A stretch of 33,339 bases of DNA from an uncultured Acidobacteriota bacterium. GTDB taxonomy: Bacteria > Acidobacteriota > Vicinamibacteria > Vicinamibacterales > SCN-69-37. The position numbers and the translations under genes are program-made. The stretch covers positions 1 to 33,339 of the forward strand of contig CALFMR010000324.1 of the NCBI GenBank assembly GCA_937880585.1. The letters run 5' to 3'. This document shows, in pieces, positions 11,880 through 33,025 of this stretch; within the stretch, counting starts at the first letter, position 1, and the number at the start of each line of letters is the position of its first letter. The notes beneath the pieces are model-generated. The model saw nothing but the letters and a program-made list of their open reading frames with translations. It was not told the DNA's origin and did no database searches.

Positions 11880-11939
11880 GGACGCAGGCTCCTCTTTACC
11901 AACTTTCACTATTGCAAGCCGTATGCCCGTGCCCGCAGA

Positions 11940-11965: not shown

Positions 11966-12102
11966 TTTCCGGCCCAGTTTTTCCAGTGACCATGCCGTTT
12001 TTGGCGGGCGGGGCCCTAACGTGACGACCCTGAAGGGGCGGGGCTCCACAAAAAACTCACAGAGAGAAATCAACGACAATACAGGCTTGGAGGGGATGCC
12101 TG

Positions 12103-12552: not shown

Positions 12553-13950
12553 CTACGGCTGCCAGCCACCGCCGAGCGCGCGGTACAGCTCGACGAACGC
12601 GTCGAGCTCCTGCAGCCGCGCGTTGGCCAGGCCGAGTTGCGCGGCGAACAGGCGCGTGTCGGCGTCGAGCACTTCGAGATAGCTCGTCGCGCCGCCCTGG
12701 TAGCGGATGTCCGCGAGTCGCCGTGCGTCGGCGGCCGCCTGTTCCAACTGCGTCTGCTGCTCACGAACGACGCGCAGCCGATCGTAGGAGACGAGCGCGT
12801 CGCTCACTTCGCGGAACGCGTCGCGCACGCGGCCTTCGTAGGTGAGCACGGCCTCCTGGCGCCGCGCGTCGGCCAGCACTTCCTGCGATCGCAGCTTTCC
12901 GCCGTTGAACACCGGCTGCAGCGCGTTCGCGGCCGCCGACCATAATCCCGCGCCACCCGTGAAGAGCGAGGTCAGCGCCGTGCTGGCCACGCCGCCCGCG
13001 CCAGTCAACGCGATCCGCGGAAAGAACGCCGCGCGCGCTGACGCGAGCTCCGCGTCAGCGGCCGTGACGAGCGCTTCCGCCTCGCGGACGTCCGGACGTC
13101 GTTCGAGCAGGTCGGATGGCAGGCCAGCCGGCACGGCCGGCATGACCTGCGCGTTGAGCGACACGCCGCGCTTTACCTGCAAATCCGGTTGGCCGACGAG
13201 CACGCCGAGGTTGTGCTCTTCGATCGCGATCTGGCGCTCGAGATCGGCCATGGTGCTCGTCGCATCGTAGACGAGCTGTTCGGCCTGGCGGACGTCGAGC
13301 ATCGACGCCGCGCCGCCTGCTTCGCGCGCCTGTGCGAGCTGCAGCGACGATTGCCGTGAATCGAGCGTGCGTTGCGCGATGTCCAGCTCGAGGTCGAGGG
13401 CACGCAGCGAGAAGTAGCTGTCGGCGACTTCGCTCACGAGCGTCGTGACGACGGCGCGTCGGCCCCAGTCGGCGGCGACCAGATCGGCGCGCGCCGCGGC
13501 CGACGCCGATCGCAGTTGTCCCCAGAAATCGAGATCCCACGACGCGGATCCTTCGAGAGCGATGGCACCGGCCGTGCGCGCCGGCGTATCGCCGAGCTCC
13601 GGCGTACGCTGGCCGCCGGCCGAGGCCGTCGCGGTCACGACGGGCCGTTGGTCCGCACGCACGACGCCCAGTTGCGCCTGCGCCTCGAGCACGCGCACGG
13701 CGGCCAGCCGGACGTCGGTGTTGGCCGTCAACGCGGATCGAACGAGCGATTGCAGCTCGGTGTCCTGAAAGACGCTCCACCACGCCTGATTGGCAATCGA
13801 CGTCAGGCCGGACGTAGTCGCCGGCGCATCGGCAAACGTCGACGGCAGATGGACGTTCGCGTGAACGTCAGATGCGGGCGGCGCGGACGCGCACGCCGCG
13901 GTGACGGCGGCCGCGGCCGCCAATGCGACGAACGACGCGCGCGGCGTCAC
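12553..13950 (-). CDS. RND efflux outer-membrane lipoprotein (NodT/TolC family)
   Basis: GTG at 13950 overlaps the RND TGA (GTGA). Lipobox AAVTAAC. WWSVFQDTELQSLV, two OEP-type repeats, C-terminal LYRALGGGW. Confidence 0.9.
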   Translation of the reverse strand: MTPRASFVALAAAAAVTAACASAPPASDVHANVHLPSTFADAPATTSGLTSIANQAWWSVFQDTELQSLVRSALTANTDVRLAAVRVLEAQAQLGVVRADQRPVVTATASAGGQRTPELGDTPARTAGAIALEGSASWDLDFWGQLRSASAAARADLVAADWGRRAVVTTLVSEVADSYFSLRALDLELDIAQRTLDSRQSSLQLAQAREAGGAASMLDVRQAEQLVYDATSTMADLERQIAIEEHNLGVLVGQPDLQVKRGVSLNAQVMPAVPAGLPSDLLERRPDVREAEALVTAADAELASARAAFFPRIALTGAGGVASTALTSLFTGGAGLWSAAANALQPVFNGGKLRSQEVLADARRQEAVLTYEGRVRDAFREVSDALVSYDRLRVVREQQTQLEQAAADARRLADIRYQGGATSYLEVLDADTRLFAAQLGLANARLQELDAFVELYRALGGGWQP

Positions 13951-16900
13951 GACGCACTCTCCGCGGGATCGGTGGGCGCCGCGGTCGGCTCGACCGCGCG
14001 GCGCGCGAACAGACGTTCGACGACGACGTACAGCATGGGGATGAAGAGAATGGCGACGACCGTCGCGAGCAGCATGCCGAAGACGACGGCCGTCCCGAGA
14101 ATTTGTCGCGAAGCCGCGCCCGCGCCTCGGGCCAGACAGAGCGGGAGGCAGCCGCAGATGAACGCGAACGACGTCATCAGGATCGGCCGCAACCGCACGC
14201 GCGCGCCTTCGAGCGCGGCATCCACGAGCCCGCGTCCGTGCTCGCGCCGTGCCTTGGCGAACTCGACGATGAGGATCGCGTTCTTGGCCGCGAGCCCGAC
14301 GAGCATGACGAGCCCGATCTGCGCGTAGACGTCGAGGTCGAAGTGCCTGAGCGCGAGGCCGCCGAACGCGCCGACGACCGCGATCGGCACCGAGAGCAGG
14401 ACCGAGAAGGGCAGCGACCAGCTTTCGTAGAGCGCCGCCAACACGAGGAACACGAAGAGCAGTGACAGCCCGAAGATGGGCGCGGCGCTGCCCGACGCAC
14501 GTTTCTCCTGATAGGACAGATCCGACCAGTCGTAGCCGATCTCGCGCGGCAGCACCTCCTGCGCGACCGACTCGAGCGCGTCGAGCGCCTGCCCCGAGCT
14601 GTAGCCGGCTGCCGCGGCGCCGGTGATCTGCACGGCACGATACACGTTGAAGCGATTCGTGTACTGCGGTCCGGCCGTCGGCCTCGTCGTCGCGAGCGAC
14701 GAGAGCGGTACCATCGCGCCCGCGCCGTTGCGCACGTAGAAGCGGCCGATGCGCGACGGGTCGTCGCGGTCGGCGCCCTCGGCCTGCAGGAACACGCGCC
14801 ACTGCCGGCCGAAGCGGTTGAACTGATTGACGAAGAGCCCGCCGAGATACGCCTGCAGCGTCTGGTAGATGTCCGGCAACTGCACGCCCTGCTTCAGCGC
14901 CTTGTCGCGATCGACGTCGAGGAACACCTGCGGCACGGCGGCGCTGAACGGCGACGTGACGTTCACGAGCTCCGGCCGCTTGCGCGCGGCGGCGAGGAAT
15001 CGCTGCAGGTTGTCGTTCAGGAAGTCGATCGACCCGCCGCTGCGATCCTGCAGCCACATCGAGAAGCCGCCCTGCGCGCCGAGGCCGGGGATCGACGGCG
15101 GCATGACCGCGATCGCGACGCCCTCGGACAGCTCGGCGGCGAACCGCGCGTTCAGCCGGTTGACGATCGTCCGCGCGTCGAGCCCAGCCGGCGTGCGCTC
15201 GCTCCACGGCCGCAGGCCGACGAAGTAGAAGCCGTTGTTGCTCGACGTCACGCGCGTGAGCAGGCTGAAGCCGACGATCGTGTTGTAGCCCTCGATGCCC
15301 GGCGTGGCGGCGAGGATGCCATCGATCTGGCGGCAGATCGCATCGGTACGCTCGAGCGACGCGGCCGGCGGCAGCGTGACGTTCAAGAGGAAGTAACCGT
15401 AGTCCTCCTCGGGCACGAAGCTCGTCGGCAGGCGGCGGCCGATGAAGCCGGCGGCGACCATGAAGAGCGCGATGGCGGCCACGCCGATCCACGCCTTGCG
15501 GATGATGAGCCGGCTCGCGCGGACGTAGCCGGTGGCCGTGCGATCGAACGCGCGGTTGAACGCGCCGAAGAACCGCGCCGACCAGCGCCGGTGCGTCCGC
15601 GGCCGGAGCAGGATGGCGGCGAGCGCCGGCGACAGCGTGAGCGCGTTGAATGCGGAGATGAGGACGGAGACCGCGATCGTGATCGCGAACTGCTCGTTCA
15701 GCCGGCCCTGGATGCCGTGCATCAGGCCGACGGGCACGAACACGCACGCGAGGATCAACGCGATGCTGACGACAGGTCCCGACACCTCGTCCATCGCGCG
15801 GATCGTCGCGTCGCGCGGCGACATCCCGTGCTCGATGTGATGCTCCACGGCTTCGACGACCACGATCGCGTCGTCGACGACGAGGCCGATCGCGAGCACC
15901 AAGCCGAAGAGCGACAGCGTGTTCACCGAGAAGCCGAGCAGCGGGAACACCGCGAACGTGCCGATGAGCGAGACGGGTACGGCGACCATCGGAATGATCG
16001 TCGCGCGCCAGCTCTGCAGGAAGAGGTAGACGACGATGATGACGAGCAGCATCGCCTCGCCGAGCGTCCAGACGATCTCGCGGATGCCTTCGGACACGGC
16101 GAGTGTCGTGTCCAGTGTGTAGGCGTAGTGCAAGTCGTCCGGGAAGCGGCTGCCGATGTCCGTCATCACGCGCTTGACGCCGTCGGCCACTTCGAGCGCG
16201 TTCGACCCGGGCGCCTGGAACACGCCGATGGCGCAGCCGGGCTGGCCGTTCATGCGGCCGATGAGCTGATAGTTCACCGCGCCGAGCTCCACGCGCGCGA
16301 CGTCGGACAGCCGCACGAGCGACCCGTCCGGATTGGCGCGCACGACGATGTGTCCGAACTCTTCCGCCGTCTCGAGCCGGCCCTGGGCGCGGACCGTGTA
16401 GGTCATCTCCTGGCCGGACGGCACCGGGTCGGCGCCGATCTGCCCGGACGGATTGACGGTGCTCTGCTGCTGCACCGCGCGAGCCACGTCGGGCACGGTC
16501 AGGCCGAGCCGCGACAGGTCGTCGGGCCGCAGCCAGATGCGCATCGCGTAGTCGCCCGCGCCGAAGACGCGTACTTCGCCGACGCCGGGCACGCGGTAGA
16601 GCGCGTCGATGATGTTGATGTTCGCGTAGTTGCTCTGGAAGACCGCGTTGTAGGTGTGCTTCGGTGACGAGAGGCCGATGATGAGCATCGGCAGTCCGGT
16701 CGACTTGCGCATCGTCAGGCCGTACTGGCTGACCGCGGTCGGCAGGTTCGGCTGCGCCTGCGCCATGCGGTTCTGGACGTTCACCTGATCGACGTTCGGA
16801 TCGGTCTCGACGTCGAACGTGACGGTGAGCGTCATCGTGCCGTCGTTCGAGTTGTTCGACTGCATGTAGAGCATGTTGTCGACGCCGTTCATCTGCTGCT

Positions 16901-17096
16901 CGAGCGGCGTGGCAACCGACTGCTCAATCGTGAGGGCATCGGCGCCCGTGTAGGTGCCGGTGACGAAGATCTGCGGTGGCACGATCTCCGGGAACTGCGC
17001 GATGGGCAGGCCCTCGAGCGCGATGATGCCGCCGAGGACCGTGACGATCGCGATGACGATGGCGACGATGGGTCGCCCGATGAAAAAGCGCGACAC
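13947..17096 (-). CDS. multidrug efflux RND permease (HAE1/AcrB family)
   Basis: 1049 aa. MSRFFIGRPIVAIVIAIV, LPIAQFPEI, AIGLVVDDAIVVVE and GLAAKNAILIVEFA are hallmark AcrB motifs. Confidence 0.95.
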   Translation of the reverse strand: MSRFFIGRPIVAIVIAIVTVLGGIIALEGLPIAQFPEIVPPQIFVTGTYTGADALTIEQSVATPLEQQMNGVDNMLYMQSNNSNDGTMTLTVTFDVETDPNVDQVNVQNRMAQAQPNLPTAVSQYGLTMRKSTGLPMLIIGLSSPKHTYNAVFQSNYANINIIDALYRVPGVGEVRVFGAGDYAMRIWLRPDDLSRLGLTVPDVARAVQQQSTVNPSGQIGADPVPSGQEMTYTVRAQGRLETAEEFGHIVVRANPDGSLVRLSDVARVELGAVNYQLIGRMNGQPGCAIGVFQAPGSNALEVADGVKRVMTDIGSRFPDDLHYAYTLDTTLAVSEGIREIVWTLGEAMLLVIIVVYLFLQSWRATIIPMVAVPVSLIGTFAVFPLLGFSVNTLSLFGLVLAIGLVVDDAIVVVEAVEHHIEHGMSPRDATIRAMDEVSGPVVSIALILACVFVPVGLMHGIQGRLNEQFAITIAVSVLISAFNALTLSPALAAILLRPRTHRRWSARFFGAFNRAFDRTATGYVRASRLIIRKAWIGVAAIALFMVAAGFIGRRLPTSFVPEEDYGYFLLNVTLPPAASLERTDAICRQIDGILAATPGIEGYNTIVGFSLLTRVTSSNNGFYFVGLRPWSERTPAGLDARTIVNRLNARFAAELSEGVAIAVMPPSIPGLGAQGGFSMWLQDRSGGSIDFLNDNLQRFLAAARKRPELVNVTSPFSAAVPQVFLDVDRDKALKQGVQLPDIYQTLQAYLGGLFVNQFNRFGRQWRVFLQAEGADRDDPSRIGRFYVRNGAGAMVPLSSLATTRPTAGPQYTNRFNVYRAVQITGAAAAGYSSGQALDALESVAQEVLPREIGYDWSDLSYQEKRASGSAAPIFGLSLLFVFLVLAALYESWSLPFSVLLSVPIAVVGAFGGLALRHFDLDVYAQIGLVMLVGLAAKNAILIVEFAKARREHGRGLVDAALEGARVRLRPILMTSFAFICGCLPLCLARGAGAASRQILGTAVVFGMLLATVVAILFIPMLYVVVERLFARRAVEPTAAPTDPAESAS

Positions 17097-17100
17097 GAGG

Positions 17101-18273
17101 TCAGCGCTCCGCGACGGCTGGCGCGTAGGGCGCCGTCGTGACCGCCGTGCCGTCGGGCACGTCCGGCCCTTCGACGACGACCGTTTCGCCGGCGGACAGG
17201 CCGCTCTGCACGATCCAGCGGCTGCCGACGCGATCGCCGACCGTGACCGCGCGGCGCCGGACCGTGCGATCGGATCCCACGACGCGTAGACGATAGAGGC
17301 CCTGCAGCTCGCTGACGGCGCGCTGCGGCACGAGGAGCGCGCCCGTGATGACGCGCGTCGCGGCGCGCACGCGCGCGAACTGGCCGGGACGCAGCGTGTC
17401 GTTCGGATTCGGGAACTCGGCGCTCACGCGGATCGTGCTCGTGCTCGCGTCGATGCTGCGGTCGGCGGCGAGGAAGCGGCCGCGCCGCGGGTAGACGCTG
17501 CCGTCCACGAGAATGAGCGTCAGCCCGTCGTCGTTGTTCCAGAGCCGGCCCGGCGTGCCACGGTTGAGGCGGCTCGCGAGCGGCAGATATTCGCGCTCGC
17601 TCAGCGGGAAATACGCCTTGATCGGATCGACCTGCGAGACCGTCGTCAACACCGTCGTTGGGCCGACGAGGTCGCCGATCTGCGCTGATGCGATGGCCGC
17701 GACGCCGTCGATGAGCGACGTGACTTTCGTGAAGGACACGTTCAGCGCCGCGGCATCGACCGCGGCCTGCGCCGATTGCACGGTCGCGGCGGCCGCCGCG
17801 CGGGCCTCGCGGTCGTCGTCGAGCTGGCTCTGCGCGATCGCGTGCTGCTCGGCGAGCGGCGTGTCGCGTGCGACGTCGCGGTCCGCCTTGCTGAGCTGCG
17901 CCTGCGATTCGCCAAGTTTCGCCTTCGCCTGCGCGAGCACGGCGTCGAACGGCCGCGGATCGATCTCGAAGAGCACGTCGCCTTTCTTCACGCGCGACCC
18001 TTCGCGATACAGACGTTTGACGAGGTAGCCGGTCACCTGCGGCCGGACTTCCGCGTTGACGTAGCCGTCGAGCGTGGCGAGCCAGTCGGTCGTGAGCGTG
18101 ACCGACTCCGGCTGCACCTGGACGACCGTCATGGTCGGCGGATGGCTCGGCGCGGCGGCGCGGCCTGGCGATCCGCGCTGGCACGCGGCGGTCAGTGCGA
18201 ACCCGGCGACCGCGGTGAAGAGAGCAAGACGATGAATGACGCCATGAATGCGAGGAGGAACGACGACGGTCAT
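17101..18273 (-). CDS. efflux RND periplasmic adaptor (MFP) lipoprotein
   Basis: ATG at 18273 overlaps the tetR TGA (ATGA). Lipobox ALTAAC. VKKGDVLFEIDPRPF lipoyl-like motif and a coiled-coil hairpin. Confidence 0.9.
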   Translation of the reverse strand: MTVVVPPRIHGVIHRLALFTAVAGFALTAACQRGSPGRAAAPSHPPTMTVVQVQPESVTLTTDWLATLDGYVNAEVRPQVTGYLVKRLYREGSRVKKGDVLFEIDPRPFDAVLAQAKAKLGESQAQLSKADRDVARDTPLAEQHAIAQSQLDDDREARAAAAATVQSAQAAVDAAALNVSFTKVTSLIDGVAAIASAQIGDLVGPTTVLTTVSQVDPIKAYFPLSEREYLPLASRLNRGTPGRLWNNDDGLTLILVDGSVYPRRGRFLAADRSIDASTSTIRVSAEFPNPNDTLRPGQFARVRAATRVITGALLVPQRAVSELQGLYRLRVVGSDRTVRRRAVTVGDRVGSRWIVQSGLSAGETVVVEGPDVPDGTAVTTAPYAPAVAER

Positions 18274-18938
18274 GAAACGGTGTCCGATCGAGTCCGATGC
18301 GTGCGGGGATGACGAGGCTGACGACTGGCCGATGATGACGCCGGCGCCGCGCCCGCGGCGGCCAGCGTGAAGTCGATGACGCGCACGAGCCACGCGCTGT
18401 CGAGCGGTCCGGGACGCTGGCGGATGCGCGTCAACACCGCGCCCGTCATGACGTCGAGGAGCAGGTCCAGGTCCGCCCCGGCGGGCAGTTGTCCGCGCGA
18501 GACGGCCCGCTCCAGAATGGCGTGCCGTGCGACGCGATAGCGCTCGCGGACGCTCCGCGACAGCCGGTCCACGGTCGGATCCGCGCGCTCGGTGGTCAGC
18601 ACGAGCACCAGGCCGCGGCCGCGTTCGGTGGCCCAGCCGCGCATGGCGGTCTTGAAGCTGGCGATGAGATCGGACCGCACGTCCCCGGTGTCGGGCACCT
18701 CGGGCGATCCGCCGACGGTCTTGAGCGCCGCGCAGACGAGCCCGGCCTTTTCCGGCCAGCGGCGGTAAATGGTCGTCTTGTTCACGCCCGATCGGGCCGC
18801 GACGTCGTCGACCCGCAGGCGCGCGTAGCCGACGCGGCCGAGCTCGGCGAGCGTCGCCCGCAGGACGGCGGCGACGACGCGCGCACTGCGGCCCCCCGGA
18901 CGCGGGTGCACGGTCGAACGGCGGGCGGCAGTGGGCAT
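18270..18938 (-). CDS. TetR/AcrR-family transcriptional regulator
   Basis: HTH motif VDDVAARSGVNKTTIYRRWPEK. 222 aa. First gene of the efflux operon. Confidence 0.9.
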   Translation of the reverse strand: MPTAARRSTVHPRPGGRSARVVAAVLRATLAELGRVGYARLRVDDVAARSGVNKTTIYRRWPEKAGLVCAALKTVGGSPEVPDTGDVRSDLIASFKTAMRGWATERGRGLVLVLTTERADPTVDRLSRSVRERYRVARHAILERAVSRGQLPAGADLDLLLDVMTGAVLTRIRQRPGPLDSAWLVRVIDFTLAAAGAAPASSSASRQPRHPRTHRTRSDTVS

Positions 18939-23252: not shown

Positions 23253-23329
23253 TGGCGCGCCCGGCTGGACTCGAACCAGCTACCCCCGACTTAGAAGGTC
23301 GGTGCTCTATCCAGATGAGCTACGGGCGC
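23253..23329 (-). tRNA. tRNA-Arg (TCT)
   Basis: The reverse complement GCGCCCGTAGCTCATCTGGATAGAGCACCGACCTTCTAAGTCGGGGGTAGCTGGTTCGAGTCCAGCCGGGCGCGCCA folds as a cloverleaf. Anticodon loop CTTCTAA. 77 nt with encoded CCA. Confidence 0.9.
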
Positions 23330-23445: not shown

Positions 23446-24537
23446 ATGACCGCGGACGACATTCGCTTGGTCCTGCGCCTTGCCCGAGGCGATAGGGCCG
23501 CCGCCGTGCGGCTCGCTGAGGCGCGCACGGCGCCGTTCGACGATCTCGCCGATCGCGCGCTCGCTGAAGGCTTGGGCGTCGTCCTGTTCCGCGGGTGGTC
23601 CGCGTTGCCATCCGGCGCACCGTTCGTCCTTTCCGACTCGTACCTCGACGCGCTTCGCGCCCGCGCCGAACGTCAGGCCGTCCGCACGGCGGCGCAGATC
23701 GACGCGCTCGCGCACATCACGGACACCTTTGCTGCGGCGGGCCTGTCATTCATTCTGCTCAAGGGGCCGTATCTTGCCGCGCGCTTCTACGGCGATCCGG
23801 CGGGGCGTGAGTTCGTCGACCTCGATCTGCTCGTCCGCCGCGCCGATCGCGCCCGCGCGTCCGAACGGCTCACGTCGATCGGGTACGCGCGCCGATCACG
23901 CGTCCTCGGCAGCGAGGCGCTGACCGCATGGTTCGTTCATGCCTTCGATTACGCCGACGCGCGGACCTATCTCGACCTGCACTGGTGTCTGTCGCGTCAC
24001 CCGCCCGTGCAGGTCGACGAGCGGCGGCTCTGGTCCTCGCGTGGCGAATGGACGGTCGGCGGTCGCGGCTACGCCGTGCTCGACGCCGAGCACGACATCG
24101 TGTTCGGCGCGCTGTCCTTTCTACGCGATGTCGAACGCGGACGGCCGAAAGCCAAGAACGTCGTCGACCTCGTCCAACTCGTGGCCGCGGCCGACACCGA
24201 TCTCGATTGGGAGGCCGTCTTCGGTCGCGCACGCGGGGAAGGCACCCACGGGCCGCTCGTCGACGTGCTGTCGCTCTGTCTCGATGTGGCGGACGCGCGC
24301 GATCTCGCGCCGCGCCTCGATCGAGCATTGACCGCCAGCGGGCGTCGCGCAGCCGGCACGCCGACAGACGTGCCATTCGTCCTGCCACCGGTAATCGCGA
24401 ATTTCGGCAACAAGCGATGGGTGGCGCGCGCCTACGATGCTGGGTGGATCAGATGGCTACTCTGGTGGGCCGTGTCGCTGCCATTTCGCCTCGGTGTCCA
24501 TCGCGGCCCGCCGCCGGCGGCTCGTCGACGGATCTGA
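23446..24537 (+). CDS. PF14907-like (NTP_transf_5) uncharacterised nucleotidyltransferase
   Basis: ATG at 23446. FILLKGPYLAARFYGDPAGREFVDLDLLVRRADRARASERLTSIGY and YLDLHW match the family pattern as I remember it. 363 aa. Confidence 0.75.
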   Translation: MTADDIRLVLRLARGDRAAAVRLAEARTAPFDDLADRALAEGLGVVLFRGWSALPSGAPFVLSDSYLDALRARAERQAVRTAAQIDALAHITDTFAAAGLSFILLKGPYLAARFYGDPAGREFVDLDLLVRRADRARASERLTSIGYARRSRVLGSEALTAWFVHAFDYADARTYLDLHWCLSRHPPVQVDERRLWSSRGEWTVGGRGYAVLDAEHDIVFGALSFLRDVERGRPKAKNVVDLVQLVAAADTDLDWEAVFGRARGEGTHGPLVDVLSLCLDVADARDLAPRLDRALTASGRRAAGTPTDVPFVLPPVIANFGNKRWVARAYDAGWIRWLLWWAVSLPFRLGVHRGPPPAARRRI

Positions 24538-24599
24538 ATCGTCGCGCGACACGCGACGCGGACGGCGGGACGCTTGTCGCTCCGGCAGACTCGACGGGA

Positions 24600-25814
24600 T
24601 CATTTCGCCAGCGCGAGAACGCGGCGGATGACGGTCGGGCGCCCGCGAATCGTCTCTTCCTCCCACCCACGCGCGGCGTCGAGCGCCGCGTCCATCGACG
24701 CGCGCGTCGCGGCCACGCGATCGAGCGCGGCGAGAACGGCGTCGGGCGTGACGCGGCCGCGAGGCGAGTCGGCGAGCGGTACCGAGAGGCCCAGCTCGAT
24801 GCAGCGCGCGGCGAGCGCCGGCTGATCGAAAAAGAAGGGATAGGCCACCATCGGCACGCGGTGATAGATGGCTTCGTGCGTCGAGTTGAGGCCGTGGTGC
24901 GTGACGTAGACGGTCGCCTCGCTCAGCACCTGCCACTGGTCAACGTACGATTCGACGCGCACGTTCGGCGTCGAGAGCCACGCGGCCGCATCCGACGGAC
25001 CGGCGCCGCCGAGGCTGACGACCGCTTCGACATCCGGACGATGGGCGATTGCCGTCTTCAGGGCGATGAGCGCGTCGATAGCCGCGTCCGTGTAATAGCG
25101 CCAGATGATTGTCCCGAACGACGCGTAGATGCGCGTCGACACGCCGGGCCGGCCGCTGAAGCGCGTCGCCGCACGCGGTTCGCGCGCGACGCCGTCCGGC
25201 CAGAGCGATCCGATGAACGCCAGCGGCTCGAACGGACGTCGCTCGTCGGGCCGCAGGAATTGCGGCGGTTCGCAGTACAGGTTGAGGTCGGGACTGACGC
25301 CCGACACGTACGAGAACGGCGACGCATCGGCGAGGCCGTGCTCGTCGCGAAGGCGCCGCACGGCGGCAAAACATGCGTCCGACACGCGCACGCGCGGGTC
25401 GTGTTCGAGCGCCGCGATCGTCGGCTGCGGGGCGACGTTGTGGCCGGCGCAGACGTTCACGCGGGGGAGCCCGAGGCAGCGGGCGACGACCGTTCCGATC
25501 ACCGCGAACGTGTCGTGCAGGACGAGCGACGGCCCGAGCGCGCGGGCTTGATCGGCGATCTCGGCGCCGAAGCGCCCCGCAAACGTCACCGACCGCGAGG
25601 CCAAAGGAAGCGATGTCGCGTCGGCTTCGTCCAGCGTATGCCCGGCGAACAGATCAACGAAGCGTCCTCCGGCGCGTTCGATCTCGGTCTGACACGGCCG
25701 GCCGGTGAAGACGTACGGCGCGGCCCCGGCGCGCGCGAGGCCGTCGATGACGGGCAGCAGCCGCGCGAAATGTCCGCGTTCGCCCATCGTGAAAAGGACG
25801 ACGGGACCGGTCAT
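24600..25814 (-). CDS. GT1-family (UDP-glycosyltransferase, MGT/OleD-like) glycosyltransferase
   Basis: ATG at 25814 overlaps the upstream TGA (ATGA). C-terminal UDPGT signature THHGLNSTHEAIYHRVPMVAYPFFFDQP. About 404 aa. Confidence 0.8.
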   Translation of the reverse strand: MTGPVVLFTMGERGHFARLLPVIDGLARAGAAPYVFTGRPCQTEIERAGGRFVDLFAGHTLDEADATSLPLASRSVTFAGRFGAEIADQARALGPSLVLHDTFAVIGTVVARCLGLPRVNVCAGHNVAPQPTIAALEHDPRVRVSDACFAAVRRLRDEHGLADASPFSYVSGVSPDLNLYCEPPQFLRPDERRPFEPLAFIGSLWPDGVAREPRAATRFSGRPGVSTRIYASFGTIIWRYYTDAAIDALIALKTAIAHRPDVEAVVSLGGAGPSDAAAWLSTPNVRVESYVDQWQVLSEATVYVTHHGLNSTHEAIYHRVPMVAYPFFFDQPALAARCIELGLSVPLADSPRGRVTPDAVLAALDRVAATRASMDAALDAARGWEEETIRGRPTVIRRVLALAK

Positions 25815-26683
25815 GGGAGCGGGATGGCTTCGCCGTGAGCCAGTCGTCGAAGCCGATCGATCGGATGCGACACGCGCGGATGCGCCGCGTCCAGCCGCAG
25901 GCACGCGCTGTGGACGAGAACGACGACGGCCCAGAAGCCGAAGTTGGGCAGCGCGACGTCGGCGGGCACGTCTGGCGCGTAGGCTTGAACGAACGCCGAC
26001 CAGCCGTCGGACGGCAGGTCCCAGCGGTACCACGTTCGTGCGAGATCGAAACCGAGATGGTCGATGCCGACGCGCTCGTTGTCGAACACGCGCAGGCGGC
26101 CGGTGGCGTCGACGAGCATGTTCTCGCCGCAGAAGTCGAGGTGCGTCAGTCCGACGGGCGCCTCGTGGGGATCGGCGCGCGACACGGCGTCGGTCAGCCG
26201 CGCGGCCTCGTGTGCGTCGATGGCCGCCGCATTCGCGAGCCGTTCGAGGCCGCGTACCGCGGCTTCGCGGCGCGCGGTCGTGCTGGCCCGCCACGCCGAC
26301 GTGCCGGCGTCAGACCATCGCTTGGCGTGGACGCGCGCGAGCAGCCGTGCGGCTTCTACGACGCGCGCGTGAGGCGGCGGTGCCGATCCCAGGAGATCGC
26401 CCGCGATCCAACGCTCGAAGAGGACGGCTCCGTGTCGCGCGAACGCCGGCACGAACGCGTCGGGCAGACGCCGTCGCATCTCGAACACTCGACGCGCCAT
26501 CGCGTCGTCTTCGACGACGCGCGCTTTGATCGTCTCGCCGGACGCCAGGTCGAGGCGGTACGTCGCGCGGCGATGGTTTGGAAAGTGGGCAGTCGTGACG
26601 TTTTCGACGCGACGCACGTCCAGGCCGGCGTGCGCGATCGCCGCCGCGAGATCGGCGTCGGTCGAAAGGTTTGTCGGGTCCAC
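25811..26683 (-). CDS. APH/protein-kinase-like phosphotransferase
   Basis: Lys in TIKARV, Glu in VFEMRRRL, catalytic HLDFCGENMLVD (HxDxxxxN), metal-binding VFDNE. GTG at 26683 lies 6 nt after GAGG; alternative ATG at 26719. Confidence 0.75.
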   Translation of the reverse strand: MDPTNLSTDADLAAAIAHAGLDVRRVENVTTAHFPNHRRATYRLDLASGETIKARVVEDDAMARRVFEMRRRLPDAFVPAFARHGAVLFERWIAGDLLGSAPPPHARVVEAARLLARVHAKRWSDAGTSAWRASTTARREAAVRGLERLANAAAIDAHEAARLTDAVSRADPHEAPVGLTHLDFCGENMLVDATGRLRVFDNERVGIDHLGFDLARTWYRWDLPSDGWSAFVQAYAPDVPADVALPNFGFWAVVVLVHSACLRLDAAHPRVSHPIDRLRRLAHGEAIPLP

Positions 26684-26691
26684 GTCACGCC

Positions 26692-27924
26692 TCAGGCAGT
26701 CTCGATCGCGTCGAGCCACGCGCCGGCTGGCCGGTCGTAGGCGCGTCGTCCGAGGCGGAGGCGGACCAGTCGGGCGCTCGCCGCGAGGCGCGCGACGAAG
26801 CCGCGCGTCGGGTCGTCAGCGGGCGCCGCGTCGGGCGCGACGCCCCCTATGCTGGCGATGATCGTCCTCACTGCTTGATGTCTCGAGCCGTACACACATG
26901 CGGCCAGACGCGCGCGACCTTCGATCTCGGACACCGTGTCAGTCGTCCATGTCGACTCGTCGTCGACGATTTCTGGAAAGACGACGGCTGAAATCGGCAC
27001 GTGGGCGACGCACGGCGCGCCAAGCCGCGCGGCGAGCTGCCGCGGCGCCAGCGAGAAGTCTCGTCCGCTCGCTGGCACGTTGGCCGCGTCATCTTCAGCT
27101 TCGGTGGAGTGCCGCAGCGCTGGCCGCTCGTCCGGCGCGATCCGCAGCATCGGGAACGACGACAACGTGGCCGGCCGGATGGCAACGAGCGTCGGCACAC
27201 CGTGGGCGGTTGTCGCCTCGTCACCGTCCAGACGGACGACGACGCGATCATTCGCGATGAGACCCGTGCGGCCTGACGCCAGCGCGTGGCAGAGCAGCGA
27301 TGTCTTGCCCGCGCGCCGCGGACCGGCAACGATGACTGCGCGTCCGCCCACGTCGAACGCCGCGGCGTGCAGGTCGAGGCATGTCTCGATCGACGCGCTC
27401 ACCGACGTCAGCCGTTCGCGCACGACGCGCATGAGGCCGATACGTGCGCGCCGCGCGTCGGGTGGCGCGACGACGTCGATGCGATCGCGCGTCACGCGAT
27501 AACCGCAGTCGATCTCGTCGTCCGCAACGACGATCGCGTCGCCATCGTTCCATCCCGGCAGCGTGACGACGCGGCGATCGAGCGCGAAGCAAGGCACGAG
27601 GCGAGTTGGCGTCGTCGCACGTTGGAGCCGAAGGGCGGCGAAGGCGTCGAGTGACGAGTCGAAGCGCACGACGACATCGGCCGCTCCAGTGCGCGTTGTC
27701 GCCATCCACGGCGTGAGGAACTCCTCCAGCCATCGGCCGGCATCAGCCGAGCTCGATTCGACGTCGACACGCGCGGCGCCGAACGCATAGCAGGTCGCGT
27801 GCGACGCGCCCGGGCGGCGCGGCACCGCGCGCCTCGTTTGAACGGCGTTCACGCTCGCATCATGGCTCGACTCGCCGGCCTGCTCCAAGTCCGCCGTGCT
27901 AACGTAAGTGATATCGGAGGGCAT
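26692..27924 (-). CDS. HPr kinase (HprK) C-terminal-domain-like P-loop kinase with extended N-terminal region
   Basis: [31 protein letters not shown] (Walker A in an HprK-like context), then LIANDRVVV. 410 aa if ATG 27924 is used; alternative GTG starts at 27852 and 27825. Confidence 0.65.
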
Positions 27925-27926
27925 CA

Positions 27927-28901
27927 GTGACGAGGCGGATGGCGTTCGTCGATGGGCAGGAAGGCACCACGGGGCTGCGCATTCGCGACGTGCTCGCGGG
28001 GCGCGACGACATCGAGGTCCTCCGCATCGACCCGGACAAACGCAAGGACCCGGCTGAACGCGCGCGGCTGCTGAACGCGGCCGACGTCGCGTTTCTGTGT
28101 CTGCCCGACGCGGCCGCCCGCGAGGCGGCGGCGCTCGTCACGAATCCGAAGACGTGTCTCATCGACGCGAGCACCGCGCACCGGACGTCGCCTGACTGGG
28201 TGTTCGGGCTGCCGGAGCTTGCGCCCGATCAGCGCGCGCGCATCCGCGCGTCGACGCGCATCGCCAATCCCGGCTGTCACTCGACCGCGTTCATCCTGCT
28301 CGTACGGCCGCTCGTCGATGCGGGCCTGTTGCCGGCGTCGCATCCGGTGACGGCGACGTCGATCACCGGCTACTCGGGCGGCGGGCGGAAGATGATCGAG
28401 CAGTACGAGCAGAGCGGCGATCCGGTACTCACCGCGCCGCGTCCGTACGCGCTCACGCTCGCGCACAAGCATCTGCCCGAAATGACGATGCACGCGGGCC
28501 TCACGGTGCCGCCGGCGTTCCTGCCGGTCGTCAGCAACTACTACAAGGGGCTGGCGGTCACCGTCCCCCTGCACCTGTCGGCGTTCGCGCCGGGCACGAC
28601 CGCGCGCGACGTACACGCCGCGATCGAACGCCGCTACGCCGGCGAGCGCTTCGTGCGCGTGCAGGCGCTCGACGATCCCGACACGCTCGCGCGTGGTTTC
28701 GACGTGCAGGCGTCGAACGACACGAACGTCGTCGACCTCTTCGTCTTCGGCAACGCGTCGCAGGCGTTGCTCATCGGCCGGCTCGACAACCTCGGCAAAG
28801 GCGCGAGCGGTGCGGCCGTGCAGGCGATGAACGTGCACTTCGGGCTGGATGAAGGGCTCGGCCTCGAGTCGCGCGTGCCCGCGTTGTCGCACGCCCACTG
28901 A
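27927..28901 (+). CDS. argC: N-acetyl-gamma-glutamyl-phosphate reductase (short, type 2)
   Basis: [13 protein letters not shown], active-site [32 protein letters not shown] at 27927 lies 5 nt after GGAGGG; alternative ATG at 27939. Confidence 0.9.
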
Positions 28902-29008: not shown

Positions 29009-31207
29009 ATGACTGGTGGTCCCGCGCATACGGTCGGCGAGCGCGTCGGTCCGTACGAAATCCAGGCACTCGTCGGACGCGGCGGCATGGGCGAGGTCTA
29101 TCGCGCCGCCGACACCAGGCTTGGGCGGACCGTCGCGCTCAAGTTCGTTCACGGGGCCGACGCCGGACGTCTCGCGCGCGAGGCGCGCGCGGTCGCCGCG
29201 CTCAACCATCCGCACATCTGCACGCTCTACGACGCCGGGCCGGACTACCTCGTCATGGAGTACGTCGACGGACAGCCGCTCCGCGGGCCGATCGCACCGG
29301 CACTCGCCGTCCGCTACGCGCGTCAGACGGCATCTGCCCTCCAGGCCGCGCACGCGCGCGGCATCGTCCATCGCGACCTGAAGCCGGCGAATATCCTCGT
29401 GACCGACGCCGGCATCAAGCTGCTCGACTTCGGCGTGGCGCGGATGGTCGGGCCGGCGAGCGATGGCGCGGAGGCGCCGACGGCGACCGTGACGTCGGCC
29501 GGGACGATCGTGGGCACGGCAGCCTACATGGCTCCGGAACAAGCGTCGGGCGGGCCGGTCGACGCGCGATCGGATCTCTTTGCGCTTGGCGCGGTGCTGT
29601 ACGAGGTGCTCAGCGGCCGCTCCGCGTTCGAGCGGCCGACCTTCGTCGAAACCCTCGGCGCGATCCTGCACGACGAGCCGGATCCGATCGACGCGCCGCC
29701 TGGCCTGCGCGGCGTCGTGGTCCGGTGCCTGCGCAAGCGCCCCGCGGAACGGTACCAATCGGCGACGGATCTGATTGGTGCGCTCGATCGCGTCGACGCG
29801 GCTGGGGAGGCGCCGACCCGTCCGTCGATCGCGGTGCTGCCGTTCGCGAATTTCGGCGGCGACCGCGACGACGATTACTTCGGCGACGGACTGGCGGAAG
29901 AGATTCTCAACGCGTTGGCACGGACGCCCGGACTGCAGGTTACCGCGCGGACGTCGTCGTTCGCCTTTCGCGGCCGAGACGAAGACGTGCGCGCGATCGG
30001 CGAGACGCTCGGTGTCGGCCATGTACTCGAGGGCAGCGTCCGGCGCGCGGGCAGGCGGATTCGCGTCACGGCGCAGCTCATCAATGCCGCCGACGGCTAC
30101 CATCTGTGGTCCGAGCGCTTCGATCGCGAGCTCACCGACGTGTTCGCCGTGCAGGACGAGATCGCCGCGGCGATCTCGGACGCCCTTCGGCTGAAGCTCG
30201 TGCCGAAGCCGCCGGCCCCGGCGCGCTACCGTCCGGCGCTGCCCGCCTATGACGCCTTTCTGGAAGGCCGGCATCTGCTGCTCGAGATCCGCGACCGTCT
30301 GCCGCAGGCCGTCGACGCCTTCGCGCGATCGATCGCGCTCGATCCCGGCTACGCGGAGCCGCATCTGGAGCTCGCGAGCTGCCACGTGCTCCTTTGGTAC
30401 TTCGGCCTCGAGCGCAGCGGTGATGCTGCCGCGGTGGTGCGGGATGAAGTGCAGGCGGCGGCCGGGCTCGGGCGCGTGACGCCGCGAGGCGAGGCCCTGC
30501 GCGGCATTGTCTCGGCCGCCTTCGACTACGACTGGGCGCACGCGGAGCGTCAGTTCGCCGCGTCGCTCGCCGAGCGCCACGGCGCCGAAGCTGAAGCACG
30601 CTGGTGCTACGCGACGTTCTGGCTCGCGCCGTTCGGACGCTTTGCCGAGGCCATCGCGCTCGTCGGCGAGTCCGTGCAGGCCGATCCGCTGAACGTCGCG
30701 TGGCGCACGTCGCGCGCGCACCTGCACGGCCTGGCTGGCGATCACACGGCGGTCATCGATGAGACGCGCGAGATCCTCGCGCGCGATCCGTCCCAATGGA
30801 TCGGGCAACTGTACGGCGCGGAAGCCAATTGGGCAACCGGGCAGACGAGCAAGGCGCTGGCGCTCATCGAGGCCGGTCATCGGTTGGTTCCCTGGCATGC
30901 CCGAACGTCGGGCATGTTCGCGGCGCTCCTGGATCTGTCGGGGGAGCGCGTGCGCGCGGACGAGATCGTCGGCCGGCTGACGGCGACACCCGACGCGCCA
31001 GGCGCTGCCACCGGGCTCGTCGTCCACGCCGTGATGACCGGCGACATCGAAGCCGCGGCGCGCTGGTGGGCCCGCGCAATCGATCAGCGCGATCTGTGGG
31101 TGATTTTCAACGCGCGTGCCTGGTTCACGCGCGAGCTACGCGCGAGCCCACACTGGCCGGCGCTTGCCGCAAGGATGGGGCTGCCATCAGACGCGGCGTC
31201 CGCCTGA
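29009..31207 (+). CDS. Ser/Thr protein kinase with TolB-N-like and TPR-like C-terminal region
   Basis: GRGGMGEVY, VALK, HRDLKPANILV, DFGVAR, GTAAYMAPE. Then PSIAVLPFANFGGDRDDDYFGDGLAEEI and a helical-repeat tail. Confidence 0.9.
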   Translation: MTGGPAHTVGERVGPYEIQALVGRGGMGEVYRAADTRLGRTVALKFVHGADAGRLAREARAVAALNHPHICTLYDAGPDYLVMEYVDGQPLRGPIAPALAVRYARQTASALQAAHARGIVHRDLKPANILVTDAGIKLLDFGVARMVGPASDGAEAPTATVTSAGTIVGTAAYMAPEQASGGPVDARSDLFALGAVLYEVLSGRSAFERPTFVETLGAILHDEPDPIDAPPGLRGVVVRCLRKRPAERYQSATDLIGALDRVDAAGEAPTRPSIAVLPFANFGGDRDDDYFGDGLAEEILNALARTPGLQVTARTSSFAFRGRDEDVRAIGETLGVGHVLEGSVRRAGRRIRVTAQLINAADGYHLWSERFDRELTDVFAVQDEIAAAISDALRLKLVPKPPAPARYRPALPAYDAFLEGRHLLLEIRDRLPQAVDAFARSIALDPGYAEPHLELASCHVLLWYFGLERSGDAAAVVRDEVQAAAGLGRVTPRGEALRGIVSAAFDYDWAHAERQFAASLAERHGAEAEARWCYATFWLAPFGRFAEAIALVGESVQADPLNVAWRTSRAHLHGLAGDHTAVIDETREILARDPSQWIGQLYGAEANWATGQTSKALALIEAGHRLVPWHARTSGMFAALLDLSGERVRADEIVGRLTATPDAPGAATGLVVHAVMTGDIEAAARWWARAIDQRDLWVIFNARAWFTRELRASPHWPALAARMGLPSDAASA

Positions 31208-31270
31208 CGCACCGCGAGTCGGTCCCGTGCGTTTCACAGCGCGCACTTCGGCACCGTCGGGTTCATCGAC

Positions 31271-31305
31271 TTCTGGCTTCTGGCTTCAAACTTCTGACTT
31301 GTCAG
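31271..31305. repeat. tandem heptanucleotide array (5 units, TTCTGGC-like; reverse complement GCCAGAA)
   Basis: TTCTGGC TTCTGGC TTCAAAC TTCTGAC TTGTCAG sits in the convergent spacer between the kinase and the pspC-domain gene. The last unit overlaps the pspC-domain stop codon. Confidence 0.65.
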
Positions 31306-32483
31306 AGCGCTCTCAGCCGCAACCCCACACGCGTGCCAGCGTTGAGCAATGAGTCGGTCGATCGTTGCAGTCCGTGCCACACATCGGGCAGGTTCTGGAA
31401 GAAGCGGCGCAGGACGTCGCGGATCTCGGGACCGTGCGTCGACGCGATCCAGATCATTACACCGATGACGGCGAGCCACAGCAGGCCGTCCCACGCCGCG
31501 TACCAGCCGTAGGTCTGTCGTGCCGCATGACGCGCGGCGTGGAACGGCGCCATGACCATCAAGTAGAGAACGAACGCGCCGAGAAGCGCCGCCCACACCG
31601 GGATGTCCGGCGGCAGCGTCCAGCCGAGCACGGCGTGCGTGTTGACGAGCGAGACGACGACGAAGGCGAGCGCGAGGAGACCGACGACGCTCACGAGCAC
31701 GAAGAGTGGCATGAGCAGGCCGAGGCCCACGTGCGCCGCGTAGCCCATCGGTGGACGCGGTGGTGGCGTCCACCATTGATACTGGCGATCGCGCTCGGCC
31801 TGGCGCCAGCGGCGACGTTCACGCGCCCGCGCACGGCGCGCCTCGTGGCGGGCGCGGCTCTGCTGCCAGTGGCGTCGGCCCCACGTCTGTCCCTCCCTCA
31901 GGTTCTGGCGCGCGCGATCGATGAGCTCGCGCGCATTGAAGGGCAGTCCGTGCGCGGCGGCGCGCTCTTCGGACGTGTCCGCGTGGGGGATGACGAACAT
32001 CAGGATGAGGTAGACGAGCACCCAGATGCCCTGCGTCGCGATCGCCAGAATGACGAAGACGATGCGGACGATCGTGACGTCGATGTTGAAGTAGGCGGCG
32101 AGACCCGTGCAGACGCCGCTGAACATTGCGCCTTCGCGGATCTGGTACAGCCGCTTCGGCGCCGCGCCGGCGTGCGCGTCGTCACGCGAATTCGATGAGG
32201 CATCACCCGCGTCGGCCGCCTCGCCTGCGGGCGGATCGACCGGGCCCATCTCCTTCAGGACCTCGTCGATCTCCGCCGACGCGATGACGTTCTTGTGCGC
32301 GCCGAGATGCCGCTGGCACTTGTCGGCAATCGCCTGCTCGAGATCGGCCATGATCTCGGCGCGATCCGGGTTGTCGGCGAGCGTGGCCGACGCGCGGTCG
32401 AGGTAGGCGACGAGCGCGCCATAGGCGCTCTCCTCGAGTTGATAGGCGGCGCCGTTCAGGTTGACGGTGATGACCTTCTGCAT
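31302..32483 (-). CDS. PspC-domain membrane protein
   Basis: KRLYQIREGAMFSGVCTGLAAYFNIDVTIVRIVFVILAI is a PspC domain, with several further TM segments. Lies 3 nt downstream of padR. Confidence 0.85.
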   Translation of the reverse strand: MQKVITVNLNGAAYQLEESAYGALVAYLDRASATLADNPDRAEIMADLEQAIADKCQRHLGAHKNVIASAEIDEVLKEMGPVDPPAGEAADAGDASSNSRDDAHAGAAPKRLYQIREGAMFSGVCTGLAAYFNIDVTIVRIVFVILAIATQGIWVLVYLILMFVIPHADTSEERAAAHGLPFNARELIDRARQNLREGQTWGRRHWQQSRARHEARRARARERRRWRQAERDRQYQWWTPPPRPPMGYAAHVGLGLLMPLFVLVSVVGLLALAFVVVSLVNTHAVLGWTLPPDIPVWAALLGAFVLYLMVMAPFHAARHAARQTYGWYAAWDGLLWLAVIGVMIWIASTHGPEIRDVLRRFFQNLPDVWHGLQRSTDSLLNAGTRVGLRLRAL

Positions 32484-32486
32484 GGC

Positions 32487-32810
32487 TTAGCGCCCCAACT
32501 GACTGATCGTGGTGTTGATGGTCTTCCAGTACTCGTCGAGGTCCGCGAGCTGGGCCCGGCCCTTCGCGGTCAGGCCGTAGTACTTGCGCGGCGGGCCTGC
32601 GTCGGACTCGCGCCACTCGTAGTCGACGAGCCCTTCGCGGCGCATCTTGCTGAGGAGCGGATAGAGCGTGCCCTCCTGCGTCGCGAACTCGGTCGTGCTG
32701 AGCTTCTTGAGCATGTCGGCGACGTACACCTTCTCGCCTGCGACGATCTTGAGGATCAGGAACTCGAGCAGTCCCTTCCGGATCGCGGTGAACTTGTCGG
32801 CGTCGACCAT
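32487..32810 (-). CDS. PadR-family transcriptional regulator
   Basis: ATG at 32810. GLLEFLILKIVAGEKVYVADMLKKL, GTLYPLLSKMRREGLV, RKYYGLTAKG. The track ORF starts at TTG 32846, inside the palindrome. Confidence 0.85.
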   Translation of the reverse strand: MVDADKFTAIRKGLLEFLILKIVAGEKVYVADMLKKLSTTEFATQEGTLYPLLSKMRREGLVDYEWRESDAGPPRKYYGLTAKGRAQLADLDEYWKTINTTISQLGR

Positions 32811-32820
32811 GTCGTGGCTA

Positions 32821-32844
32821 GCTACCTTGTCATGACAAGGTAGC
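32821..32844. promoter_or_regulatory. perfect 24-bp palindrome, candidate PadR operator
   Basis: GCTACCTTGTCA|TGACAAGGTAGC lies 11-34 nt upstream of the padR ATG. Confidence 0.6.
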
Positions 32845-33025
32845 AATGGGCTGGAAGGTTGTCAACTCGCGTTGCCGAACGGCGAGTCTCGAGGGGGAGA
32901 GCCGTGTTCGGCAAGAGACGGACGGCGGTCCCGCCCGGACGCGTGCGCTCTGACGCGCACCATCCGCCGACCGCCGTTCGAGTAGCGCAGACGTACGACC
33001 ATGGCTCCCTGATAAGGTCTGTGGG

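Follow-up and report, generated by a model that had tools for sequence, protein, structure and literature searches.

The window analysed here, a 33.3-kb contig (33,339 nucleotides, ~70% G+C) of an uncultured Vicinamibacterales bacterium of the Acidobacteriota, carries at positions 23446–27924 a cassette of four genes whose products resemble kinases, a glycosyltransferase and a nucleotidyltransferase (NTase). Three of the genes form an operon on the minus strand. The first encodes a P-loop protein with the HprK/phosphoenolpyruvate carboxykinase (PEPCK) fold, a member of the ScmC/HprK-related superfamily that is called HprK-like below (26692–27924, maximal open reading frame (ORF) of 410 aa). 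It is followed by the gene of an APH-fold (eukaryotic-like) kinase of 290 aa with a GTG start (25811–26683; Pfam PF01636). The last gene of the operon encodes a GT1 glycosyltransferase of 404 aa (24600–25814; GT-B, UDP-sugar type, MGT/YjiC-like). The fourth gene lies on the plus strand, convergent with the operon, and encodes an NTase-like protein of 363 aa belonging to the Pfam family PF14907 (NTP_transf_5; 23446–24537).

The four gene calls and the tight structure of the operon had been proposed in an initial annotation, and all four ORFs are present at the coordinates it gave. The stop codon of the HprK-like gene (TGA, 26694–26692) overlaps a GAGG sequence (26693–26690), and after an 8-nt gap the APH gene begins at 26683 with GTG, not ATG. 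The stop of the APH gene and the start of the GT1 gene share an exact ATGA (25814–25811). G+C content at third codon positions (GC3) is 0.79–0.85 in the cassette genes as compared to 0.84–0.90 in the neighbouring genes. Since the GC3 is in this range and each protein has hundreds of homologues, the coding signal of the cassette is real. Several proteins of the window are identical to proteins called on Vicinamibacterales MAGs (metagenome-assembled genomes), and the exact 363-aa PF14907 protein has been called in other assemblies as well; for the exact 410-aa HprK-like protein no database record was found.

The 410-aa ORF is present as annotated, but it is probably over-extended, and the true start of the HprK-like protein is probably GTG 27825 (~377 aa), which has GAGG 6 nt upstream. 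The longer version would leave 2 nt between the divergent HprK-like and argC genes. Its residues 1–40 are disordered in the AlphaFold model and absent from the homologues, which begin around residues 30–46 of the ORF, and DNA homology to a relative (L034) starts only at ~27806. With the start at GTG 27825, the stretch 27826–27938 is taken as the divergent intergenic region, probably a promoter region, between the operon and argC. A scan of this region for the sigma-70 consensus found none. In the 62-nt convergent spacer between the stop codons of the NTase and GT1 genes (24538–24599) there is no terminator-like site, and the spacer does not fold better than shuffled controls. Rfam searches at the gathering threshold found tRNAs in the window and in five related loci, and no riboswitch or regulatory RNA.

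The cassette is located between a tRNA-Arg gene and argC, as had been noted initially, and both lie outside it. On the left, ARAGORN and Rfam (tRNA, 65.3 bits) agree on the tRNA-Arg with anticodon TCT (23253–23329, minus strand). On the right, Pfam identifies argC, the gene of N-acetyl-gamma-glutamyl-phosphate reductase (27939–28901, plus strand; PF22698 and PF01118), with a likely start at ATG 27939 and GAGG in front of it.

Family relationships of the four proteins

Catalytic motifs are present in all four proteins. The assignments to APH, GT1 and PF14907 made in the initial annotation are clear, each being above its Pfam cut-off. The HprK-like label does not come from Pfam; the fold is supported by profile comparison and by AlphaFold.

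The APH kinase belongs to PF01636 (E 8e-12, 45.9 bits against a gathering cut-off of 23.2), and the catalytic loop HLDFCGEN (HxDxxxxN) can be read in its translation. Its weak NCBIfam matches are all to small-molecule kinases, namely GntI, APH(3'), homoserine kinase and thiamine kinase. The glycosyltransferase is a member of the general GT1/UDPGT group according to Pfam (UDPGT 5.6e-9, EryCIII-like_C 8.2e-8), and its signature HHGLNS...DQ can be read in the translation. It matches the MGT model TIGR01426 over nearly its full length (1.5e-27), but with 96.6 bits against a cut-off of 260 it falls outside the MGT subfamily. Its nearest PDB sequences are 10zg, OleI/OleD, Kcn28, CalG2 and YjiC. With MGT, OleD/OleI, YjiC, CalG and Kcn28 it shares the GT-B fold, the UDP-sugar signature and a length of ~400 aa; it differs from them in its score below the MGT cut-off and in being encoded in a conserved kinase/NTase operon, which those enzymes are not.

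The PF14907 protein is well above the gathering cut-off of its family (8.3e-36, 124.3 bits against 31.2). In the family alignment Gly107, Asp177 and His179 are invariant and Asp125 and Asp127 are at least 90% conserved, so that the hG-x, DxD and third carboxylate of Pol-beta-type NTases are all found (G107; D125 and D127; D177). The AF2 model (pLDDT 92) gave Foldseek matches to MenT1, ANT(2'')-Ia and LnuA. The modelled structure suggests a minimal Pol-beta-type NTase core with helical extensions. An anti-phage defence system was also considered and rejected, as PADLOC defence-system models gave no match to any of the four proteins at E<=0.01.

The HprK-like protein is more difficult to place. 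Pfam finds no PF07475 in it and only sub-threshold AAA matches, although PF07475 is found on one distant homologue. All NCBIfam matches are sub-threshold: HprK-related kinase B (TIGR04355; 1.4e-8, 34.3 bits against a cut-off of 200, covering only the P-loop stretch 180–267), FomB (2.8e-6), HprK-related kinase A (TIGR04352; 16.7 bits against 200) and ScmC (TIGR04249; 16 bits against 125). About one quarter of the homologues carry a precomputed match to PF27840 'ScmC', which is weak on the 69%-identical protein P0002. A profile of the family matches HprK/P (1jb1) with an E value of 0.0028 and aligns His186, the P-loop GPxxxGKT and the ND-R stretch with HprK/P motifs. Invariant in the family alignment are H186, G201, G206-K207-T208, D226-R227, P244-T245 and R250.

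The AlphaFold (AF2) model of the protein has pLDDT 87 and pTM 0.87. Foldseek aligns it over the full length with PEP carboxykinases (~4e-7, TMq ~0.4, ~400 columns), and HprK/P matches the C-terminal domain only (3e-5). The structural comparison thus agrees with the initial HprK-like assignment in the C-terminal domain, and the full-length kinship is to PEP carboxykinases. The MurE/F-like N-terminal domain of HprK/P is not seen in the full-length model, and there are no pts or hpr genes in the window. On the basis of the model, the protein is best described as a probable two-domain member of the PEPCK/HprK P-loop superfamily and not as a bona fide HPr kinase.

TIGRFAM describes HprK-related kinase A together with PqqD-family proteins, kinase B together with ATP-grasp, amphi-Trp and CofD-like proteins ('GAK') and ScmC together with radical S-adenosylmethionine (SAM) proteins. 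The cassette protein belongs to the same P-loop superfamily, HprK_rel_B being its best NCBIfam match and PF27840 matching its homologues, but the scores are below the cut-offs and none of these partner genes is adjacent. PqqD is absent from the window, from the called genes of four related loci (L035–L038) and from the loci of the two closest relatives (P0002/P0003). The GAK partners are absent from the window and from the related loci examined, and no radical SAM gene adjoins the HprK-like gene. The sole radical SAM protein of the window (434–1417, with a CPLRCPGC motif) is encoded 22 kb from the cassette, with no RiPP (peptide made by the ribosome and modified after translation) partner genes adjoining it.

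Conservation, gene fusions and accessory genes

A word-indexed search found 114 relatives of the HprK-like protein, nearly all metagenomic. An exhaustive profile search gave 793 clusters (50% identity) at E<=1e-30 and 2,515 at E<=1e-10; the family counts ~800 clusters of full-length proteins. Some high-GC shadow ORFs that had been called as genes in the loci (clusters c15, c18, c19 and c39) were disregarded. To find loci, a profile made from 13 closer HprK-like sequences was run against GTDB representative genomes, and the partners were detected by tblastn with the window proteins. There are 32 loci with an HprK-like relative, all in metagenome-assembled genomes (MAGs). Of the 20 close loci, 15 keep the order HprK-like, APH, GT1, one of them in another gene arrangement; they were found in MAGs of Binatia, Acidobacteriota, Myxococcota or 'delta', and 'beta proteobacterium'. 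In 11 of these 15 loci the PF14907 gene is separate, convergent or adjacent, and in a twelfth (L003) it is fused to the HprK-like gene. GT1 orthologues are 53–57% identical in 14 of the 15 and 47% identical in L003. Of the remaining five close loci, three are truncated by a contig end or lie close to one, and the other two (L007 and L012) have no detectable partners. Co-occurrence and synteny had been named beforehand as a check on the cassette, and the result is strongly positive. MAGs of Gemmatimonadota, Planctomycetota, Rokubacteria, Chloroflexota and others hold more distant HprK-like/APH/PF14907 trios. The cassette is therefore a conserved module that is found across phyla in many uncultured soil bacteria.

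The cassette is also a self-contained unit. This is seen in L035, a 7.04-Mb contig in which the O-methyltransferase (see below), HprK-like, APH and GT1 genes overlap one another, the PF14907 gene is convergent with them, and these five genes stand alone among unrelated genes. A 99%-identical HprK-like protein is encoded on a 7.5-kb contig with the same four genes. Adjacency to argC is seen only in Vicinamibacterales relatives. In the two closest of these (HprK-like proteins 65–70% identical) the synteny is the same, with argC on one side and DUF5715/LysM and MFS genes on the other. Recent integration of a genomic island at the tRNA-Arg was considered as well and was rejected, because the GC3 is only slightly below that of the neighbours and because relatives with so diverged an HprK-like protein have the cassette at this same site.

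Several natural fusions join the cassette proteins with each other. The two kinases are fused in both orders, APH–HprK-like in five cases and HprK-like–APH in one (P0090, P0299, P0349, P0351, P0413 and P0409). A PF14907–HprK-like fusion encodes a product of 711 aa (P0341/L003:8930-11065), an ATPase of an ABC transporter (ABC_tran) is fused to the HprK-like protein in P0393 (1036 aa), and an APH–GT4 fusion is found in L031:11125-13302. No other evidence points as strongly as these fusions to a joint action of the enzymes in one process. The ABC–HprK-like fusion hints that the modification may be coupled to export in some lineages.

These fusions bear on an alternative raised already in the initial annotation, namely the inactivation of antibiotics. 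The locus would then be a toolbox against antibiotics or xenobiotics, in which a macrolide glycosyltransferase and APH/MPH, Lnu/ANT-type and FomB-like enzymes work independently of each other. The best named NCBIfam neighbours of the proteins do fit it, the GT1 being nearest to MGT, OleI and Mgt, the kinase to APH(3') and the P-loop protein to FomB, as does the resemblance of the NTase model to ANT(2'')-Ia and LnuA, and the window also holds an RND (resistance–nodulation–division) efflux pump and an MFS transporter. However, every curated resistance model scores far below its cut-off: MGT 96.6 against 260 bits, Mgt 34.4 against 700, OleI 47.5 against 700, APH(3') 22.4 against 205 and FomB 26.6 against 400. 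Strict gene order, translational coupling and fusions across phyla argue for one pathway and not for independent enzymes, and the cassette was found in environmental MAGs only and in no mobile-element context. We consider a role in resistance very unlikely.

The block of four genes is conserved, but it is not the whole cassette. In the two closest relatives (P0002/P0003 loci) argC is followed, after a gap of 118–160 nt, by a PF00891+PF08100 O-methyltransferase gene that overlaps the start of the HprK-like gene and is translationally coupled to it. The same O-methyltransferase occurs in L008, L009, L014, L001, L019 and L035. In three loci a Zn-dependent dehydrogenase gene is found directly upstream of the HprK-like gene (L001:8859-9965, L004:8859-9965 and L006:8877-9983), in the position of the O-methyltransferase; L001 has both. 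The best match of the dehydrogenase is scyllo-inosose 3-dehydrogenase IolM (193 bits, below the cut-off of 450), which points, if weakly, to a cyclitol or polyol as the substrate. At 13 loci the cassette includes an uncharacterised protein of ~241 aa that we call c3, usually encoded between the GT1 and NTase genes (for example L015:13136-13924, L013:4853-5641 and L008:8159-8884, and in 10 other loci). It has 450 unnamed homologues and the invariant motifs VPxDDDDWFxP and CxTNNYA, and no match to it was found in Pfam, NCBIfam or PDB sequences. The acidic motif suggests a metal-dependent transferase.

A tblastn search of the window with the relatives' O-methyltransferase and c3 found neither. 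Where the relatives have the O-methyltransferase, the window has only ~113 nt of DNA (27826–27938) with no homology to it, and therefore its lineage has cleanly lost, or never gained, the methylation step. Judged by gene content, the window cassette is a reduced four-gene version of a cassette of five to six genes, without the O-methyltransferase and c3. In five Terriglobia-like loci, the more diverged L018 among them, a non-coding stretch of ~200 nt immediately upstream of the start of the HprK-like gene shows high conservation (L013:1480-1760, L015:9760-10100, L016:9750-10010, L017:9480-9730 and L018:2400-2690). It could be a promoter/operator or a leader RNA; Rfam gave no match to it.

The neighbours of the distant relatives include GT2, GT4 and rhamnosyltransferase (Rhamno_transf) genes, sulfotransferases, PMT_2, GDP-mannose dehydratase, a classical sugar-1-P nucleotidyltransferase, ABC_membrane exporters, ABC-2 permeases and a Polysacc_synt flippase. 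Such surroundings raise the question whether the cassette decorates or terminates a cell-surface glycan. WbdD, a kinase/methyltransferase, caps the E. coli O9a O-antigen with methyl-phosphate, and the kinases of the cassette, together with the methyltransferase of the relatives, could cap in a similar way a polysaccharide or glycolipid that is made elsewhere. The GT2/GT4, Rhamno_transf, PMT_2 and flippase genes near distant relatives speak for this, as do an ABC-2 (Wzm-like) permease with its ATPase, the TupA-like ATP-grasp and GT2 genes that adjoin the cassette in betaproteobacterial loci, and the capsule loci of Bacillota in which clusters with the same kinase/NTase pair are embedded. However, the cassette has no polysaccharide genes near it in the window, in L035 or in the closest relatives, and soluble small molecules are the usual substrates of GT1/MGT enzymes and PF00891 O-methyltransferases. 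Moreover, the coiled-coil ruler of WbdD has no counterpart in the four proteins. Glycan capping is thus improbable, though less so than a resistance function.

The same sugar-rich surroundings fit a pathway of nucleoside diphosphate (NDP) sugar salvage and transfer. NahK and AmgK are anomeric sugar kinases. If the APH protein were such a kinase, the PF14907 protein would make the NDP-sugar and the GT1 would transfer it, and the HprK-like protein and the O-methyltransferase would modify the sugar or the acceptor. A kinase, a nucleotidyltransferase and a glycosyltransferase do make up the canonical logic of sugar activation and use. The APH–GT4 fusion of L031 and the distant loci rich in sugar-nucleotide enzymes and glycosyltransferases agree with it, and an NTP transferase that makes the substrate of a glycosyltransferase was suggested by the authors of the pseudomycoidin study (PMC6993621). 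On the other hand, PF14907 has the Pol-beta-type fold (MenT, ANT(2''), LnuA) and not the Rossmann-like fold of sugar-1-P nucleotidylyltransferases, and L023 has a classical PF00483 enzyme besides. No sugar kinase model picks up the APH protein, and the APH–HprK-like and NTase–HprK-like fusions would be left unexplained. We regard sugar salvage as unlikely, while placing it ahead of glycan capping.

Several other features of the window may be noted. On the far side of argC, at 29009–32846, there is a gene for a TPR-repeat Ser/Thr kinase and, after it, a PspC and a PadR gene, and these three are syntenic in the closest relatives. An AcrB-type RND pump is encoded with a membrane-fusion protein at 13947–18393. 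At 5092–8308 a LigD gene (ligase and primase-polymerase) is divergent from a Ku gene, the two forming a bacterial non-homologous end-joining pair. After a tRNA-His the G+C content falls to 0.64–0.66 (10667–12000) as compared to ~0.70; this stretch has short ORFs with weak codon bias and no Pfam matches, and may be a small integrated element.

Relation to peptide-tailoring enzymes and possible function of the cassette

HprK-like and PF14907 proteins are known as a pair only from the tailoring of lasso peptides and of linear polyphosphorylated peptides (LPPs). The initial annotation had given this precedent correctly: a homologue of HPr kinase phosphorylates the C-terminal Ser of paeninodin-type lasso precursors (PMC8498205, PMC6993621), and literature confirms that a hexose is then placed on the phosphate. 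In pseudomycoidin, PsmK of the HprK family polyphosphorylates Ser, and the presence of one or two hexoses on the phosphate depends on PsmN, an NTP transferase that is uncharacterised and requires its DxD; in the view of the authors, PsmN could be a glycosyltransferase of a new kind or could supply one with its substrate (PMC6993621). LPPs of Bacillota were defined in 2026, with an LppK/LppN pair and clusters embedded in capsule loci (PMC13381572). No paper describing the cassette was found by our literature search, in which 'PF14907' turned up only in a phosphonate survey.

The likeness to PsmK/PsmN (and PadeK) consists of an HprK-fold P-loop kinase and a Pol-beta-type NTP transferase with DxD, with a phosphate and then a hexose being added. 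It is seen in the folds and in the co-conservation of the two genes, which are fused in L003/P0341. The order NTase–ABC–kinase is shared by some of the distant relatives. In contrast to lasso clusters, neither the window nor the annotated neighbours in the close clade gave a cyclase, B1 RRE (RiPP recognition element), B2 protease, precursor or exporter. Added in the cassette are an APH-fold kinase, in some genomes fused to the HprK-like protein, a true GT1 and, in relatives, the O-methyltransferase or c3. The phyla differ as well (soil Acidobacteriota, Binatia and others as compared to Bacillota), and the HprK-like protein matches HprK-related models only below threshold. With LPP clusters the cassette shares the kinase/NTase pair, and distant relatives also share an exporter and the glycan-rich setting. 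The SpI-type peptidase, discrete RRE, precursor motif and exporter of the LPP clusters are absent from the window, ABC_membrane exporters being found only in the distant relatives, and the APH kinase and GT1 lie outside the LPP core. The defining features of lasso, LPP, HPr-rel-A or GAK systems are not found in the cassette, and it does not appear to be a ScmC system.

These resemblances make it necessary to ask whether the cassette tailors a RiPP in trans. The HprK-like protein would then (poly)phosphorylate Ser of a peptide encoded elsewhere, and the PF14907 protein and GT1 would glycosylate the phosphate. The sole characterised HprK-like + PF14907-type pairs are indeed RiPP tailoring enzymes, and in L023 the order NTase–ABC exporter–HprK-like is the N-D-K order of Firmicutes lasso clusters. 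Sulfotransferases occur near distant relatives, as reported for lasso clusters, an ABC exporter is once fused to the HprK-like protein, and homologues match the Pfam family 'ScmC', named for a radical-SAM peptide cassette. Yet a Pfam scan of the 20 other ORFs of the window found no PqqD, asparagine-synthase-like cyclase, transglutaminase-like protease or ABC exporter, in agreement with the initial description of the cassette as an orphan without lasso or RiPP core genes. Neither in the Pfam-scanned window genes nor, by precomputed Pfam matches, in the called genes of L035–L038 is there a PqqD/RRE, lasso cyclase, lasso (B2) protease, SpI peptidase or radical SAM partner, and the neighbours of loci beyond these and the P0002/P0003 loci were only spot-checked for RiPP genes. 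Clustering of ORFs of 20–100 aa outside predicted genes and within 4 kb of the cassette gave no conserved small ORF; the clusters obtained were rejected as precursors, being either shadow ORFs that overlie real genes or a sign that close genomes share conserved DNA. The LPP leader YxxPxVLxHQxIxFETxxS, also in a relaxed form, is absent from the six-frame translations of the window and of all 38 loci. Scores to HprK_rel_A, HprK_rel_B and ScmC are 6–12 fold under their cut-offs. In addition, MGT-type GT1 and PF00891 O-methyltransferases typically act on small molecules, most characterised RiPP glycosyltransferases are GT2 enzymes, and lasso and LPP clusters have nothing that corresponds to the second (APH) kinase. 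Peptide tailoring in trans is therefore also unlikely, but the least so of the alternatives. The multi-step modification module of the initial annotation thus keeps its support as far as a shared process is concerned, through synteny and fusions, and its link to RiPPs stands by analogy only, with no RRE, precursor, peptidase or cyclase in the annotated neighbours.

The explanation that we favour, without being confident of it, is that the cassette is a self-contained phospho- and glycosyl-transfer pathway whose enzymes act successively on one acceptor. The APH kinase and the HprK-like protein would work as a pair and install a phosphate, possibly with a second phosphate on the first one. The models for this are the polyphosphorylation carried out by HprK-like lasso and LPP kinases (PsmK/LppK) and the reactions of FomA/FomB. 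FomA/FomB of fosfomycin producers, two unrelated kinases of which one is HprK-like, add successive phosphates to one small molecule and thus offer a model for why two kinases might be coupled. The parallel has its differences: the FomB score is 26.6 bits against a cut-off of 400, the partner in the cassette has the APH fold and not the amino-acid-kinase fold, and there are no phosphonate genes nearby. The PF14907 protein would then act on the phospho-intermediate, either adding a nucleotidyl group or attaching a hexose to the phosphate, and the GT1 would add a sugar from a UDP-sugar. In most relatives the O-methyltransferase and/or c3 would finish the product, these steps having been lost from, or never present in, the lineage of the window. 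No acceptor is encoded next to the cassette. A small hydroxylated metabolite (a sugar, cyclitol or lipid-like compound) or a glycoconjugate of the cell envelope seems more likely as the acceptor than a ribosomal peptide, because of the MGT-type GT1, the PF00891 O-methyltransferase and the IolM-like dehydrogenase together with the lack of peptide machinery.

Several points weigh against this explanation. The HprK-like protein is far from characterised HprK-like kinases, with all NCBIfam matches <=34 bits, and it has Asn in place of the first Asp of the HprK 'DD' pair. Because of this substitution and the distant kinship, the protein may not be a kinase at all. HprK/P itself is also a phosphorylase. 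The preference for a small molecule rests on typical behaviour of the families, and the order of the proposed steps is drawn from analogy only. The window copy is without two genes that are common elsewhere, and so it may make a different or truncated product. A few relatives, L007 and L012, carry the HprK-like gene without detectable partners. To our knowledge, the biochemical reaction of PF14907 proteins has never been established. LppN showed no activity in a heterologous host, and a need for a partner encoded elsewhere has been suggested (PMC13381572).

The cassette is a new form of the phospho-glycosylation theme of HprK-like kinases and PF14907 proteins, in which the pair is seen in another setting, with a second kinase, a true glycosyltransferase and no peptide machinery. 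A bolder possibility, which we hold only tentatively, is a new biosynthetic pathway in which an obligate APH/HprK-fold double kinase, PF14907 protein and GT1 make a new class of phospho-glycosylated, often methylated, products. Such a pathway would be independent of any RiPP machinery, and a small molecule or glycoconjugate would be its product. The finding is a lead and not a discovery, as computation alone cannot establish the product. If the pathway is real, solving it would also reveal the reaction of PF14907 enzymes such as PsmN and LppN. The cassette is spread among Acidobacteriota, Binatia, Myxococcota, Gemmatimonadota, Planctomycetota and other soil lineages, and as a compact system of four to six genes it gives a handle on PF14907 chemistry and possibly on new phosphoglycosylated metabolites or envelope decorations.

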